In this document: one piece after another, positions 441 through 60,228 of the stretch
Position numbering within the stretch: position 1 is the first letter of the stretch
How the letters are laid out: each line of letters begins with the position of its first letter
Source of the DNA: Minisyncoccota bacterium
Lineage (GTDB): Bacteria > Patescibacteriota > Minisyncoccia > UBA6257 > GWB1-50-10
Length of the DNA: 64,000 bases
Reading direction: 5' to 3'
Assembly (NCBI GenBank): GCA_041659005.1
Contig: JBAZZD010000002.1
Span: 25,817 to 89,816 of the forward strand
Program-made: the position numbers and the translations under genes
Notes under the pieces: model-generated
Told to the model about the DNA's origin: nothing
The model's input: only the letters and a program-made list of their open reading frames with translations
The model's database searches: none

Positions 441-516
441 AATTTCGAATGACGAATTTCTAATTTTGAATGAAAGGGAGAAAAAAATTTTAAATTACAA
501 ATTTTGAATTTCAAAT
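441..516. repeat. AT-rich dispersed repeat pair (AATTTCGAATGACGAATTTCTAATTTTGAAT + AAATTACAAATTTTGAATTTCAAAT)
   Basis: First motif at 441-471 matches 53833 and 58842; second at 493-516 matches the 31-mer family at 58729. Confidence 0.65.
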
Positions 517-534
517 AAAAAAGAGGGGAAAATT

Positions 535-999
535 ATGAAACAGCCGAAGAATGATTCTAAATATATTTGGACTACGCATGCGTGGGAAAAAATGCAACAG
601 TATGGAATTTCAGAACAGCGAGTAAAACGCATTGTTCGGTTTCCAAAAAGGACGGAGGAAGGAGTCCTTGATGGTGCGGTTGCGGTAATGTCTCCATGCG
701 GGAGATCCGCTGTAGGAAGACAACCATCGCATACAAGTGAGATGTGGGTGATGTATGTTCTTTTTGATGGAAATCAAAAAGGAATTTCGCCTGCCTGCGC
801 AGGCAGGAATGACGAAATTCGAAATCCTAAACAAGAAAAAGAGAAGAAGAATGAGAGGCCACTTGATAATATACAATCCTTTTTAGGAAATACAGGGAAG
901 AGATTTAAAATTATTACGGTGTGGCGTTATCCTGGAGTAAGTCCGGTGCGAGATGCAATTCCTGATGACGTTTTGTCTGAAATTAGAGCATTATTATAA
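535..999 (+). CDS. hypothetical protein, DUF4258-like N-terminus; reading frame passes through a dispersed repeat (782-826)
   Basis: N-terminal YIWTTHAWEKMQQYGISEQRVKRIV resembles the DUF4258 H..ERM..RGI motif. The ORF contains the GC palindrome plus AT-repeat halves. An intrinsic terminator follows. Confidence 0.4.
   Translation: MKQPKNDSKYIWTTHAWEKMQQYGISEQRVKRIVRFPKRTEEGVLDGAVAVMSPCGRSAVGRQPSHTSEMWVMYVLFDGNQKGISPACAGRNDEIRNPKQEKEKKNERPLDNIQSFLGNTGKRFKIITVWRYPGVSPVRDAIPDDVLSEIRALL
782..826. repeat. composite repeat inside ORF 535..999: GAATTTCG + CCTGCCTGCGCAGGCAGG + AATGACGAAATTCGAAAT
   Basis: The 18-bp perfect palindrome (790-807) sits exactly between the two halves of the AATTTCG|AATGACGAA motif seen intact at 441, 53833 and 58842. 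Confidence 0.65.
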
Positions 1000-1008
1000 A
1001 TTTAAAAA

Positions 1009-1040
1009 AGACGCGAAAGATATTTCGCGTCTCTATTTTT
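1009..1040 (+). terminator. rho-independent terminator
   Basis: Hairpin agacgcgaaa-gat-atttcgcgtct followed by ctattttt. Confidence 0.6.
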
Positions 1041-1368
1041 GAAAGAAAAGTTCCCAGAAAAAGAGATGTCGCAGCCTCCACAGGTTTGCACTATTTTTTT
1101 TCTTAATGAAATTAACAAGAATGAGCACATATTTTTGTTTTGGCAATTCCCGTTTTACTGGAATTTCCCTTTCCAACTCATTGTGACATAGTCGACATAT
1201 GTCGATTGTTTCACTATTCTCAAAAAACCTTTTTGGATATATATGGTGTTTTGATTTTACCCGCTCTCCTTTTGTTGTGTATGGTTTGTTACATGCACAG
1301 CAACGGGGAATAAATTTTCTTTTGTGGTGATCTTTTCTTTTTCCATATTTTCTTTTATGACGTCCCAA
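1033..1368 (-). CDS. HNH endonuclease family small protein
   Basis: CCACNKPY...SKHHIYPKRFFENSETIDICRLCHNELE gives the CxxC...HH..P...N...LCxxCH HNH motif; basic N-terminus. Confidence 0.5.
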   Translation of the reverse strand: MGRHKRKYGKRKDHHKRKFIPRCCACNKPYTTKGERVKSKHHIYPKRFFENSETIDICRLCHNELEREIPVKRELPKQKYVLILVNFIKKKNSANLWRLRHLFFWELFFQK

Positions 1369-8855: not shown

Positions 8856-9982
8856 TAAAAAAATTACGAATTCCTAAAAGTTCTTCTCCTGATTTTGTTT
8901 TTTTGGGATTTCTTGCGGTACTTATTATATTTGGACTTGTAATTCTTACAAGCGCGTCATCTGATCTCGCAAAAACAGAGACCGGGGACAGTATGTATTA
9001 TTTGAAACATCAAATAACAAATGGATTGTCAGTAGGTATAATTGGATTTCTGATTGGATATTTTCTTTATTATCGAATATGGGAAAAAATTTCAGTTCCG
9101 CTTCTTGTTCTTGGAATTGTTCTTCTGTTTCTCGTTTTTACCCCGTTAGTTGATATTCAAAAAGGGGGTGCAAGATGGATTGATTTTCAAATTTTTAAAT
9201 TCCAACCTGGAGAATTTATTAAATTAGCATTTCTTGTCTACCTTTCTGCATGGGTTGGTAAAAATCAAGAGCGGAGCAAAAGTTTTATTGGTGGGTTTAT
9301 TCCGTTTTCACTTCTTGTTGGGGTAGTGATGATATTACTTATATTACAACCAGCAACTTCAACTGCTGCTCTTGTTTTCTTCTCATCACTTATCACTTAT
9401 TTTATTGCGGGTGCAAAACCTAAGTTTTTTATTGGTATGATCCTTATTGGCGCCATCTCTCTTGGCGTACTTATTTTTGCTGTCAAAAATAATGACGGCG
9501 AAAATTATCGGTTAAAACGTGTTGCAACTTTTTTACACCCAGAAAGTGATCCACTTGGTTCTGGGTGGCACATAAATCAAGCGCTTAATGCAATTGGATC
9601 TGGTGGTATATTTGGCGTTGGGTTTGGGAAATCAACTTCAAAACTTTATTTTCTTCCTGAGCCAATAGGAGATTCAATCTTTGCGGTTATCGCCGAAGAA
9701 CTTGGATTTATTGGTGCTGTTGGTTTTCTTTTCTTTTTCCTTGCATTTTTATGGCGTGGATTTAAAATTGCTACACGCGCACCTGACAATTTTGCTAAGT
9801 TTTTGGTTGTTGGGTTTATGAGTATTCTTGGTCTCCAAGCGTTCGTAAACATTGCCGCCATATCAGGAGTTATTCCGTTAACTGGTGTGCCATTGCCATT
9901 TGTGAGTTATGGCGGTACTGCACTCGCAGTATTTCTTACTATGTCAGGCATTATTGCGAATGTATCAAAATATAAACGATAA
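8852..9982 (+). CDS. ftsW: SEDS-family peptidoglycan glycosyltransferase FtsW/RodA
   Basis: Ten TM segments; GDSIFAVIAEELGFIG and PLPFVSYGGT motifs; 4-nt ATGA overlap with the upstream gene. Confidence 0.85.
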   Translation: MIKKLRIPKSSSPDFVFLGFLAVLIIFGLVILTSASSDLAKTETGDSMYYLKHQITNGLSVGIIGFLIGYFLYYRIWEKISVPLLVLGIVLLFLVFTPLVDIQKGGARWIDFQIFKFQPGEFIKLAFLVYLSAWVGKNQERSKSFIGGFIPFSLLVGVVMILLILQPATSTAALVFFSSLITYFIAGAKPKFFIGMILIGAISLGVLIFAVKNNDGENYRLKRVATFLHPESDPLGSGWHINQALNAIGSGGIFGVGFGKSTSKLYFLPEPIGDSIFAVIAEELGFIGAVGFLFFFLAFLWRGFKIATRAPDNFAKFLVVGFMSILGLQAFVNIAAISGVIPLTGVPLPFVSYGGTALAVFLTMSGIIANVSKYKR

Positions 9983-34612: not shown

Positions 34613-34984
34613 TTTTTCTCCTTTTTAATTGTGAAAGAATAAAACAACAATATCGCTTTTGGGCGGTATTAGCAAGGTTTACTCCAAAATTCCTATTTTT
34701 ATATGAAATCTTCATACAATATAAATTCAACTCAAAAAGGAAATGAAAAAAATAATCCACAGCAAACTCAACGCCTTGGGCGCCTCAAACAGTGCTGCGG
34801 ATTATATTTTCAAGTTTCCCTTTTTCGTGAATTTATTTATTGTATTCCGACGTACGTATAAAAACAGGAATTCTTTCGTCTGGGCGTATATTGCGAACTC
34901 AGCACCCGAGGTGCTTCAAACAACGCTATAGATTATGTTTTTTTTAATCTTCTTCTCTTCACAATTTATACAGCGCACTCCAAA

Positions 34985-35002
34985 CCTGCCTGCGCAGGCA
35001 GG
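34985..35002. repeat. GC-rich perfect palindrome CCTGCCTGCGCAGGCAGG (dispersed repeat copy)
   Basis: Identical 18-mer to 790-807. Confidence 0.7.
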
Positions 35003-35042
35003 CGTATGCATAAAAGAGTGATTTTTTTGTCTAGGTGTTTTA

Positions 35043-35438
35043 TTACCAGTTGAGTACGGTCACGGTAACTTGAAGAATGGTTGCGAAATAGACCCATGCA
35101 AGATATGGGAAGTTTACTATCGCTACCCAACGAGCTCGTGGCCAAATTACTTTCATTGCCCACACGAGAGTTCCAAGGACTAAAAGGATATCAATAGTGG
35201 CAAGGATATTACTTTTTAATCCAAATTGAATTGGGGTGAATGCAATATTAAAAATCGCATTCAAAAAAAATGGCAAAAATATTCCTGTCGCATATTGTTT
35301 CTTTGTATATTTTATTAATACATATCCAAATGAAACAATGATGATAAGATACAATACCATCCACACTGGACCAAAAATCCACGCGGGCGGAGCCCATGAT
35401 GGTTTTAACAATTCACTATAGTATGCATAGTTTTCCAT
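35043..35438 (-). CDS. tspO: tryptophan-rich sensory protein TspO/MBR
   Basis: LKPSWAPPAWIFGPVWMVLY motif; five TM helices. Confidence 0.85.
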   Translation of the reverse strand: MENYAYYSELLKPSWAPPAWIFGPVWMVLYLIIIVSFGYVLIKYTKKQYATGIFLPFFLNAIFNIAFTPIQFGLKSNILATIDILLVLGTLVWAMKVIWPRARWVAIVNFPYLAWVYFATILQVTVTVLNW

Positions 35439-53832: not shown

Positions 53833-53864
53833 AATTTCGAATGATGAATTTTGAATTTCTAATT
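53833..53864. repeat. AT-rich dispersed repeat copy (AATTTCGAATGATGAATTTTGAATTTCTAATT)
   Basis: Matches 441-471 and 58842-58870. Confidence 0.65.
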
Positions 53865-58728: not shown

Positions 58729-58913
58729 AATTTCAATTTATAATTTACAAATTTCAAATGAGAGAATGAAGAGAAAGGAGAATTTCAATTTATAATTTAC
58801 AAATTTCAAATAAACGAGAATTAAAGAGTTTGGAATAAAATAATTTCGAATGACGAATTTTGAATTTTCTGCCCAAGGCAGATCAGTCTAAGGCTGACAA
58901 TTTATAATTTACA
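58729..58913. repeat. tandem and dispersed AT-rich repeat array (2.5 copies of the 31-mer AATTTCAATTTATAATTTACAAATTTCAAAT plus one AATTTCGAATGACGAATTTTGAATT copy)
   Basis: 31-mers at 58729-58759 and 58781-58811 (period 52), partial at 58888-58913; AT-motif copy at 58842-58870; hairpin ctgcc-caag-gcag at 58863-58875. Confidence 0.7.
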
Positions 58914-59471: not shown

Positions 59472-59510
59472 CCCCGCCAAAAGCGGGTCAGCCTGCCTGC
59501 CGTAGGCAGG
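59472..59510. repeat. GC-rich palindromic repeat variant (CCTGCCTGCCGTAGGCAGG) with adjacent cccgcc-aaaa-gcggg hairpin
   Basis: Same CCTGCC...GGCAGG arms as the 790 and 34985 copies. Confidence 0.55.
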
Positions 59511-59538
59511 GATGATGGAGAAAAATAAAAAGCCCCTA

Positions 59539-60228
59539 TTAGGGCTTTGAAAGTGTGTATGCTTTTACCACTATGCTTATAATGGCAAATGGAAGTGAAA
59601 TTGCAAACAGGATATTTGCAAATGAAATTTCACTAAATGCTATTAAGAGGATTCCAATTGCTTGGAGAGAAAATTTCACTTTTCCGAAAATGTTGGAACG
59701 AAAATTTGTATTCTCTTTTTTCTTTAATCCTTGCAATGTAAATCCCACGAGTGCAATGATTAGCAAAAATAATTCAATCCCAATCATTGGAAATATAACC
59801 CAATGAGAAAGCTGACCAAGAAATGGCATTACAATAATAATAAGGGACACCTTATCACAGAGAGGGTCAAACCATTCACCGAATGCGGTATGTCCATCTA
59901 TTTCTGCCCATGCCCCGTCAAATTTATCGGTGAGTAGGGCAATAATTACTATCGGTGACACAAAATACCATGGAACGCCGTATGTCTGCATTATCATTGC
60001 TATTGTGATGAGAAATGGTCTTAGGACTGACAAAAGATTAGGAACAGTAACAATCGCTTCTCCTTGAACTCTCCAATTGAGGATAGTTGTTATCAATTCC
60101 TCATGTTTGTCTTCTCTGCGTTCGCGACGTTTTTTTATCCATTCGCGAGTACTTATCGCATATGGACGAAGAACATTCGCTATAACACGATTTAGCGCAT
60201 TGTATGCGCCCTCCATAAATTTTTGCAT
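59539..60228 (-). CDS. CDP-alcohol phosphatidyltransferase family protein
   Basis: DKFDGAWAEIDGHTAFGEWFDPLCDKV gives D-G-x2-A-R/W...G-x3-D-x3-D. Confidence 0.75.
   Translation of the reverse strand: MQKFMEGAYNALNRVIANVLRPYAISTREWIKKRRERREDKHEELITTILNWRVQGEAIVTVPNLLSVLRPFLITIAMIMQTYGVPWYFVSPIVIIALLTDKFDGAWAEIDGHTAFGEWFDPLCDKVSLIIIVMPFLGQLSHWVIFPMIGIELFLLIIALVGFTLQGLKKKENTNFRSNIFGKVKFSLQAIGILLIAFSEISFANILFAISLPFAIISIVVKAYTLSKP

Follow-up and report, generated by a model that had tools for sequence, protein, structure and literature searches.

An 18-bp GC-rich palindrome in frame in a conserved Paceibacterota gene and recurring in low-GC genomes of the candidate phyla radiation

Introduction

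Palindromic sequences that lie in frame within genes have been described in Rickettsia, where, as PMC10969869 summarises Ogata et al. (2000), the Rickettsia palindromic elements (RPEs) are ~100-150 bp long, add tens of residues, are confined to Rickettsia, occupy apparently permissive structural places in unrelated and often housekeeping genes that are left intact, and encode no transposase. Mitochondrial genomes contain GC-rich hairpins that sit in AT-rich spacers and are polymorphic between close relatives, namely the GC clusters of yeast (PMC4478555) and the hairpin elements (RHEs) of sponges (PMC2800124); the yeast clusters are exchanged by flanking homology, and their GC42 type, with a putative AG (AG/TAG) target duplication, is mostly intergenic (PMC4478555). 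Repetitive extragenic palindromes (REPs) are palindromic hairpin units of ~20-40 bp that are non-coding, repeated and mobilised in trans (PMC2817692, PMC3733652); a conserved tetranucleotide, GTAG or CGTC, marks one of their ends (PMC3733652), and they usually number >100 per genome and form inverted BIME/REPIN doublets (PMC2817692). Here we describe P, the 18-bp GC-rich perfect palindrome CCTGCCTGCGCAGGCAGG, in a 64-kb stretch (the window; contig JBAZZD010000002.1) of low GC content (~36%) from a genome of the candidate phyla radiation (CPR), Candidatus Paceibacterota. P interrupts an AT-rich motif inside a conserved gene at 535-999 (the host gene), and is best explained as a tiny non-autonomous, non-coding, GC-rich palindromic insertion module that is widespread in low-GC CPR (Patescibacteria) genomes.

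In function P is closest to the RPEs and to the mitochondrial GC clusters and hairpin elements. It shares with the RPEs, as that source summarises them, the in-frame position in unrelated, often housekeeping genes that remain intact, the apparently permissive surroundings and the lack of an encoded transposase; it differs in being a perfect palindrome of 18 bp that adds six residues and occurs across CPR classes and some other phyla, and no sequence relationship is implied. With the mitochondrial elements it shares the nesting and merging of units. The polymorphism of two sites in the host gene (sites A and B), a unit at 58868 set in an AT-rich repeat, and nested units in relative L154 and in a spacer of relative L007 all match the behaviour of GC clusters, and 30-nt twin hairpins in the window resemble the 'double hairpin' designs of mitochondrial elements. 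The differences are that P shows no duplication (at site A, site B or in topA), that about half of its copies lie in open reading frames (ORFs), and that its genome is bacterial rather than that of an organelle.

Results

An in-frame palindrome at a site that is uninterrupted in orthologues

Positions 783-816 of the window read AATTTCG, P, AATGACGAA, with ATT rather than TTT as the final three bases of the motif, and P lies in frame 0 of the host gene; in both respects the sequence bears out a preliminary description, made from the sequence alone, which had P splitting the AT-rich motif AATTTCGAATGACGAATTT between these two pieces within the ORF. The identical palindrome that it reported at 34985 is likewise an exact match, and these are the two exact copies of P in the window, where shuffling of the window gives an expectation of 0.00. 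The motif itself, of which 0.02 copies are expected by chance, had been listed as intact at three places: the copies at 441 and 58842 are exact, and that at 53833 carries one mismatch. P begins with CCTG and finishes with CAGG, its length is a multiple of three, and it holds no stop in any of the six frames. Folding of the single DNA strand gives a 7-bp stem closed by a GCGC loop (-6.5 kcal/mol), and around P GAATTTCG (782-789) pairs with CGAAATTC (813-820) to give a composite fold of -13.1 kcal/mol (z = -4.4).

The preliminary description had suggested a search for empty sites in relatives, and three orthologues (L001, L002 and L155) proved to carry an uninterrupted GGAATTTCGAATGACGAATTTCGAAATCC at the same place, in frame, encoding GISNDEFRNPK. 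It had also entertained a coincidental motif match, which these sequences rule out, and had counted the same protein without the palindrome in other strains as evidence against its proposal; such proteins were found, and they are evidence for insertion. The three empty orthologues read GGAATTTCG, AATGACGAA, TTTCGAAATCC, the first junction being site A and the second site B (position 816/817 of the window). Relative to them the window has P at site A only, as an addition of exactly 18 nt or six codons. The junction is blunt (TTTCG^AATGA), with no target-site duplication and no flanking bases lost; the sole ambiguity of placement is one G at site A, a 1-nt microhomology, and there is none at site B.

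Other relatives are filled differently. L003 carries P with one substitution (CCTGTCTG...) at site A together with a 21-nt sister palindrome, CCTTGCCTACCGGCAGGCAGG, at site B, and in L004, L006 and L007 the 21-mer stands alone at site B, 9 nt downstream of site A; of its 21 nt, 20 form a palindrome and the other is an extra T. In protein sequence L154 is the nearest relative (91% identity; 84% in DNA over the gene region), and at site A it holds a 36-nt form in which CCTGCGTGCGCAGGCATG lies between CCCGCCTGC and GCAGGCAGG, so that one 18-mer is nested in the middle of another. The inserts at sites A and B are all multiples of three, and none has a target duplication. The proposal of the preliminary description that a discrete small hairpin was inserted in an AT-rich unit is thus supported by the orthologous empty sites, by the copies elsewhere and by the nested copy in the closest relative.

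In a neighbour-joining tree of the conserved gene parts (363 aligned sites), filled and empty states are scattered across both clades. Locus L009 (628-1035) has a gene body nearest to that of the window (82-92% DNA identity in the surrounding region) and the linker type of the outgroup L157/L158 (ENSKLKAQKSKVGE); this joining of a window-type body to an outgroup-type linker shows recombination within the host gene. The site-B 21-mers point to a single origin because all share the odd extra T, and since they have one origin and are nevertheless patchy, they imply allelic recombination or precise loss. Overall, the filled state reads as derived from the empty one.

The host gene is conserved and intact

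The preliminary description had offered two possibilities for the ORF at 535-999, a gene disrupted by P or the read-through of a mobile element; the host gene is neither. It is conserved, syntenic and intact in every orthologue examined. Database searches returned 54 homologues of 97-171 aa, in which the N- and C-terminal blocks are invariant and length variation is confined to two places. The match to Pfam DUF4258 (E = 7e-4) is below the curated cut-off, and a Foldseek search of the structural model against PDB gave nothing significant. In relatives the gene has a fixed place in the order PBP-family gene, host gene, ychF, scpA, scpB. An AlphaFold model built on the family alignment shows residues 82-119 as a loop between two beta strands with pLDDT < 50, and the insertion of P is therefore predicted to fall in a disordered loop. 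Since P contributes whole codons and no stop in any of the six frames, the gene remains intact and its product is longer by six residues (PACAGR).

The spacer between the PBP-family gene and the start of the host gene (436-534) is a mosaic of short AT-rich modules that is wholly different between close relatives (L154, L006, L007, L009, L004 and L008 were compared). L009 and L004 have in common a different module set, L007 has an AT unit and a twin hairpin with a P-like 20-mer nested inside, and one piece of the window's spacer, AATTTCGAATGACGAATTTCTAATTTTGAATGAAAGGGA, is found again within the coding linker of L006. In L197, a distant orthologue, a GIY-YIG gene abuts the start of the host gene. 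The convergent neighbour at 1033-1368 (minus strand) encodes a small conserved protein with the pattern CxxC...KHHIYPKRFF...LCRxCHNELE, which is like that of HNH/treble-clef nucleases; an HNH assignment was not adopted, the indications being this Cys/His pattern and a sub-threshold Pfam HNH_5 match (E = 0.02) in the L001 orthologue only, and PDB and homologue searches being uninformative.

P recurs in unrelated contexts in low-GC genomes

A scan of GTDB with one genome per GTDB species, for the exact 18-mer only, found P in at least 119 genome stretches; abundances and taxon shares are those of this sample. Among the matches listed, 46 of 80 are labelled CPR and represent all major classes (WWE3, Microgenomates, Saccharibacteria, Paceibacteria and others), and the non-CPR matches listed include Bacteroidota, two isolates (Litoribacter and Rosettibacter) and some high-GC genomes, in which chance matches are plausible. 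Most P loci have 32-46% GC, a range in which a zero-order model expects ~4e-7 copies per Mb. A second copy was present in only 5 of the 119 8-kb loci sampled. The 18-mer also gave 25 matches in viral contigs, mostly of 58-67% GC, which is compatible with chance or composition, and no link to phages emerged.

The position before P is a purine, and that after it correspondingly a pyrimidine, in 152 of 190 flanks (95 copies in low-GC loci, p = 2e-17); the rule holds for coding and non-coding copies alike, and no copy fails it on both sides. The flanks of these copies are otherwise unrelated, with no conserved tetra- or pentanucleotide, and the window's AT-rich motif, which is restricted to the window's lineage, stands beside P in none of the 95 other low-GC copies. 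Because its flanks are unrelated, P is not site-specific in the sense of the preliminary description, which had proposed insertion at a specific site. The junctions are also unlike one another: TTTCG^AATGA and GACGAA^TTTCG in the host gene, TGCGG^AGAAA in topA.

Taking as coding a stop-free span, not a curated gene (ten were confirmed by Pfam), we found that 49% of 80 copies have, on each side, at least 40 codons free of stops, versus 67% for random positions in the same loci. The reading frames of 39 coding copies are unevenly used, with 26 encoding LPAQAG, 8 PACAGR and 5 CLRRQ (p = 2.4e-5); in the LPAQAG phase the split codon NR|Y turns into NRC, which preserves the residue encoded there. 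Essential genes are among the ORFs that hold P; Pfam assigned the ten longest of these ORFs to TopA, PolA, a UvrD/AddA-like helicase-nuclease, HsdR, DnaG, RecJ, CysRS, GatB, a class II aminoacyl-tRNA synthetase and a Mur ligase.

TopA offers a comparison like that at site A. The sequence CPLCG[LPAQAG]EKKKK is found in L020 and its close homologues P0094, P0055 and P0057, whereas most TopA orthologues at 80-88% identity are without the insert (CPLCG-EKKGK...) and some others have different GC-rich inserts at the same zinc-ribbon turn. There is no target duplication, and the empty and filled alleles differ by the insert alone. By these alignments, topA too has a presence/absence polymorphism of exactly six codons, independent of that in the host gene. 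As a separate observation, enzymes of DNA metabolism (TopA, PolA, UvrD-like, HsdR, DnaG and RecJ) make up 6 of the 10 longest host ORFs (L020, L037, L053, L079, L128, L049), which may reflect gene length only.

In five CPR genomes the exact 18-mer lies in an incomplete, 5' copy of tRNA-Gln, roughly ten nucleotides in (..GGATCG, P, TCTAATGGTAGGA..), near an intact tRNA-Gln (loci in Table 1). A small free-standing GIY-YIG ORF (Pfam E ~1e-13) lies between fragment and intact gene in L036, and L118 has the same GIY-YIG N-terminus; in L047 a GIY-YIG ORF lies on the far side of the intact tRNA-Gln. In L046 a Cys/His-rich ORF of 111 aa lies between fragment and intact tRNA; assignment of this ORF to HNH was set aside, the Cys/His pattern being its sole indication and PDB and homologue searches being uninformative. 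The arrangement resembles a P-carrying cassette of the homing type at tRNA-Gln, and it is possible that such a cassette serves as a vehicle or a source of breaks for P.

Twin hairpins and sister palindromes

The second of the two variable places of the host gene also holds an insert, a partly decayed 30-nt twin hairpin at 691-720. It sits exactly between Met52 and Gln-Pro in the second loop of the host gene, so that the window reads AVM[SPCGRSAVGR]QPSHTSEMW where L001, L004 and L008, without the insert, read A(A/G)MQP(A/S)GKQEMW. A well-formed twin hairpin, TGTCCTTACGGGACATCTCCCGCAGGGAGA, occupies this codon position in L197 (L197:751-780, approximate). A second twin hairpin, at 58868-58897, has the same 6-3-6 / 6-3-6 design; its insertion is seen against the uninterrupted paralogous units at 58729-58760 and 58781-58812, and its DNA fold has -7.4 kcal/mol.

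Unrelated low-GC CPR loci also share a further perfect palindrome rich in GC, TCCGCCAGCTGGCGGA, at times within ~50 bp of P. Some of its copies form the middle of a longer palindrome, and distant host-gene orthologues (L167-L170) have in their linker a variant that differs from it by one base. Extended palindromy of the flanks of P, which insertion at hairpin tips would produce as a general rule, was not above chance.

Intergenic copies and other features of the window

The second exact P stands at the end of a region of ~430 nt (34613-35042) that has no convincing ORF or Rfam match in an otherwise compact genome and that contains short GC-rich hairpins (e.g. 34901-34915). This copy is not called as a terminator and does not match the pattern of a GC-rich hairpin with a T-run after it; for P in the host gene the terminator pattern is matched on the minus strand only, and the gene's real terminator-like hairpin is at 1009-1032. 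The hairpin CCCGCCAAAAGCGGG and the 19-nt P variant form a pair (59473-59510) that two minus-strand genes enclose and that lies immediately upstream of a terminator-like hairpin (59530-59547). Rfam models matched two tRNAs only in the window, and nothing at the palindromes.

Table 1. Positions of P, the AT-rich motif and related features in the window and, where a locus is named, in other genomes
Feature	Position	Strand	Basis or context
Host gene, conserved 154-aa protein, weakly DUF4258-like, hypervariable loop residues 82-119	535..999	+	Pfam, homologues, alignment, synteny, AlphaFold
P, arms CCTGCCTGC and GCAGGCAGG, in-frame insert PACAGR, codons 86-91	790..807	.	Exact match; orthologues L001/L002/L155 without P
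Left piece of split AT-rich motif, AATTTCG	783..789	+	Window sequence and orthologue comparison
Right piece of split AT-rich motif, AATGACGAA + ATTCGAAAT	808..825	+	Orthologue comparison
Second exact P, intergenic	34985..35002	.	40 nt past stop of minus-strand gene 35043-35438; flanks unlike AT motif
P-family variant CCTGCCTGCCGTAGGCAGG, 19 nt, intergenic	59492..59510	.	4 nt from hairpin CCCGCCAAAAGCGGG (59473-59487)
AT-rich motif AATTTCGAATGACGAATTT, exact	441-459	+	In hypervariable intergenic 436-534 upstream of gene; L001 orthologous copy at 9968
AT-rich motif, one mismatch (GATGAA)	53833-53851	+	Motif search
AT-rich motif AATTTCGAATGACGAATTT, exact	58842-58860	+	Immediately left of 58868 twin hairpin
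30-nt twin hairpin, TCTCCATGCGGGAGA + TCCGCTGTAGGAAGA, partly decayed, in frame, SPCGRSAVGR, codons 53-62	691..720	+	Codon-level comparison
30-nt twin hairpin, TCTGCCCAAGGCAGA + TCAGTCTAAGGCTGA, intergenic, splits another AT-rich repeat unit (AATTT^CAATTTATAATTTACAAAT)	58868..58897	+	
P-bearing tRNA-Gln fragment	L036:1723-2105		
P-bearing tRNA-Gln fragment	L118:389-780	minus	
P-bearing tRNA-Gln fragment	L047:6730-7200	minus	
P-bearing tRNA-Gln fragment	L046:3528-4013		
P-bearing tRNA-Gln fragment	L051:360-487		
TCCGCCAGCTGGCGGA copy	L075:2075-2095		
TCCGCCAGCTGGCGGA copies	L090:1712, 7270		
TCCGCCAGCTGGCGGA copy	L105:7447		
TCCGCCAGCTGGCGGA copy	L113:4959		
TCCGCCAGCTGGCGGA copy	L115:5735		
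TCCGCCAGCTGGCGGA copy	L120:5467		

Comparison with transposase-mobilised palindromes and uptake sequences

The preliminary description had likened P to REP/RAYT or IS200/IS605 elements. Searches with phmmer, using E. coli RayT and IS608 TnpA as probes (the latter validated against PDB 2a6m), found no match in the window, single-sequence probes being of limited reach, and in 1.39 Mb of fetched related loci gave one weak RayT-like match, in a WOR-3 locus. Beyond that weak match the window and these loci gave no sign of a Y1/RAYT transposase, and P has neither a fixed target nor a GTAG or CGTC tag, so that a reading of P as a REP or IS200 element is not supported; nor are its copies extragenic. 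REPs are extragenic and species-specific and co-occur with a RAYT gene, features not found for P in the sequence covered, and the 64-kb window holds two exact copies of P and one variant, with no doublets. IS200/IS605 elements need a different hairpin at each end, left and right, and insert 3' of a fixed 4-5-nt target. P is like them in lacking target duplication, and hairpin DNA is the structure recognised in that family, but P is one symmetric perfect 18-bp palindrome with no fixed target and no TnpA detected. Its two 9-bp arms are formally inverted repeats, as in miniature transposable elements with inverted repeats (MITEs) of the DDE type, but there is no duplication and no internal sequence. 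The DNA uptake sequences (DUS/USS) of Neisseria and Haemophilus are short identical motifs that related species have in common and that are frequent in genes, with preferred frames and permissive positions; they arise by substitution and occur about once per kb, whereas P is an indel relative to orthologues and occurs twice in 64 kb. A search of the open-access full-text literature, with subscription papers outside its scope, found no description of the 18-, 20- or 16-mer strings, the peptides or CPR palindromic elements.

Discussion

We think it probable, on the weight of these comparisons, that P is copied from existing copies by trans-acting machinery and then filtered by selection. Under this proposal, a pre-existing P would serve as the source of the copy, machinery encoded outside P would insert it at DNA breaks, and selection would remove insertions that are out of frame or harmful. 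The survivors would build up in permissive loops, AT-rich intergenic repeats and other 'junk', and would later decay under AT mutation pressure. P is retained at places where it does no harm, among them disordered loops, turns of zinc ribbons, AT-rich repeats between genes and a tRNA fragment that has no function. A selective filter is argued for by a length that is a multiple of three, by the LPAQAG bias and by the lack of a stop in any of the six frames, and the state of the insert at 691-720 and the substituted copies in L003 and L154 suggest decay under AT pressure. Free-standing nucleases of the GIY-YIG/HNH type, which adjoin several of the hot spots, are a lead to candidate machinery and are offered as a lead only.

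Four points weigh against this reading. The RayT and TnpA probes identified no mobilising enzyme in the window or the 1.39 Mb of related loci. The apparent copy number per genome is low (two exact copies per 64 kb; 5 of 119 loci doubled), which is unusual for a proliferating element. Identity over 18 bases across phyla is hard to explain, since a neutral parasite would need machinery that is highly conserved or horizontally spread. Finally, filled and empty states are patchy on the gene tree, and the polarity of the change (gain as opposed to precise loss or allelic recombination) is therefore argued from parsimony and from the intact motifs at paralogous places, not from phylogeny.

A broader proposal is that P and its sister families (the 20/21-mers, TCCGCCAGCTGGCGGA and the twin hairpins) are unrecognised minimal insertion modules, either the smallest DNA units known to propagate or scars left by the healing of breaks that free-standing GIY-YIG/HNH-type nucleases make, which CPR-wide and beyond systematically add short loops (LPAQAG and similar) to essential enzymes and would in this way be a significant source of protein-length variation in these reduced genomes. 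We regard this generalisation as doubtful.

Among the alternatives, P might have no dedicated mobility and might spread by homologous or illegitimate recombination (gene conversion, or natural transformation of co-occurring strains) between AT-rich units that already bear it. Allelic recombination is seen within the host gene in L009, the intergenic modules upstream of it are swapped among relatives, the loci encode type IV pilus genes, and yeast GC clusters are exchanged via flanking homology (PMC4478555). Recombination of this kind cannot, however, put P into the unrelated flanks of topA, polA, dnaG and others, or into the centre of itself, and no other composite of AT-rich motif and P occurs in the ~1.4 Mb of loci; we consider it unlikely as a sufficient account.

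It is quite unlikely, too, that the direction of change is the reverse, with an ancestral AT-rich unit that held both palindromes, as L003 does, giving rise by precise excision to the empty alleles of L001 and L155 and the half-filled ones of the window and L004. Perfect palindromes are deletion-prone, the patchy filled and empty states occur in both clades of the gene tree, and so do the site-B 21-mers, with their odd extra T and one origin. Three observations favour gain: no flanking direct repeats are present that could drive precise deletion, there being 1 nt of microhomology at site A and none at site B; the motif is uninterrupted at the non-orthologous positions 441 and 58842 and at L001 9968; and P stands alone in unrelated contexts. 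The nested form in L154, moreover, can only be a gain.

We give little credence to a role as a host-used signal, in which P would be the site of a conserved DNA- or RNA-binding factor (an uptake signal, a nucleoid or topology site, or an RNA hairpin) kept identical by selection or by biased uptake. P has the same sequence in very distant lineages, competence-type pili are found in CPR genomes, and by analogy its presence in coding sequence and its frame bias might be likened to the uptake sequences of Neisseria and Haemophilus. Set against this, P arises as an indel and not by substitution, its density is orders of magnitude under that of known uptake sequences, it has no consistent position relative to genes, the copy at 34985 is not terminator-like, and copies decay in place (L003, L154, 691-720).

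A similarly small likelihood attaches to an origin in break repair, whereby double-strand breaks, perhaps made by free-standing GIY-YIG/HNH nucleases or at hairpin tips, would be repaired by attaching one and the same short (CCTG)n-type arm to each end before the ends are joined, so that each palindrome arises de novo. The arms are indeed (CCTG)n prefixes with variable inner ends (9+9, 10+10, 10+9, 6+10 and 6+6), insertion occurs without duplication or a fixed target and at the centre of an existing palindrome, and GIY-YIG genes adjoin the P-bearing tRNA-Gln fragments and the L197 orthologue. Yet the 36-nt form consists of tandem 9-nt arm units with no continuous CCTG run, which a nested preformed 18-mer fits better; central deletions could equally yield variable centres; and the other families (TCCGCCAGCTGGCGGA, twin hairpins) have different arms. 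To our knowledge, no bacterial enzyme has such an arm-adding activity.

An assembly or library artefact, with a self-complementary oligonucleotide built into contigs, might be suspected from an identical short palindrome in many unrelated assemblies, but has a negligible chance of being correct given the recurrence of P at one codon position across independent samples that show point variants (L003, CCTGTCTG...; the nested L154 form), the frame and flank biases, the presence of P in the isolate genomes L064 and L066, its enrichment in low-GC lineages only, and contigs that are continuous and syntenic on both sides.

If our preferred reading of P as an insertion module copied in trans is confirmed, P would be a mobile DNA unit, or one generated recurrently, of only 18 bp, which is below the size of REPs, MITEs and RPEs. 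It would insert without a footprint, be shared unchanged across a huge bacterial radiation and be tolerated in genes for a topoisomerase, a polymerase, a primase and aminoacyl-tRNA synthetases. It would then offer a tractable system in bacteria for asking how the GC clusters of mitochondria move, and a marker for strain-level population genetics of uncultured lineages. For annotators, such inserts are neither frameshifts nor pseudogenes, and their recognition would, if the reading is confirmed, help to account for odd low-complexity peptides (LPAQAG, PACAGR, PAGRQ and the SASGG type) and for length polymorphisms in CPR proteins.

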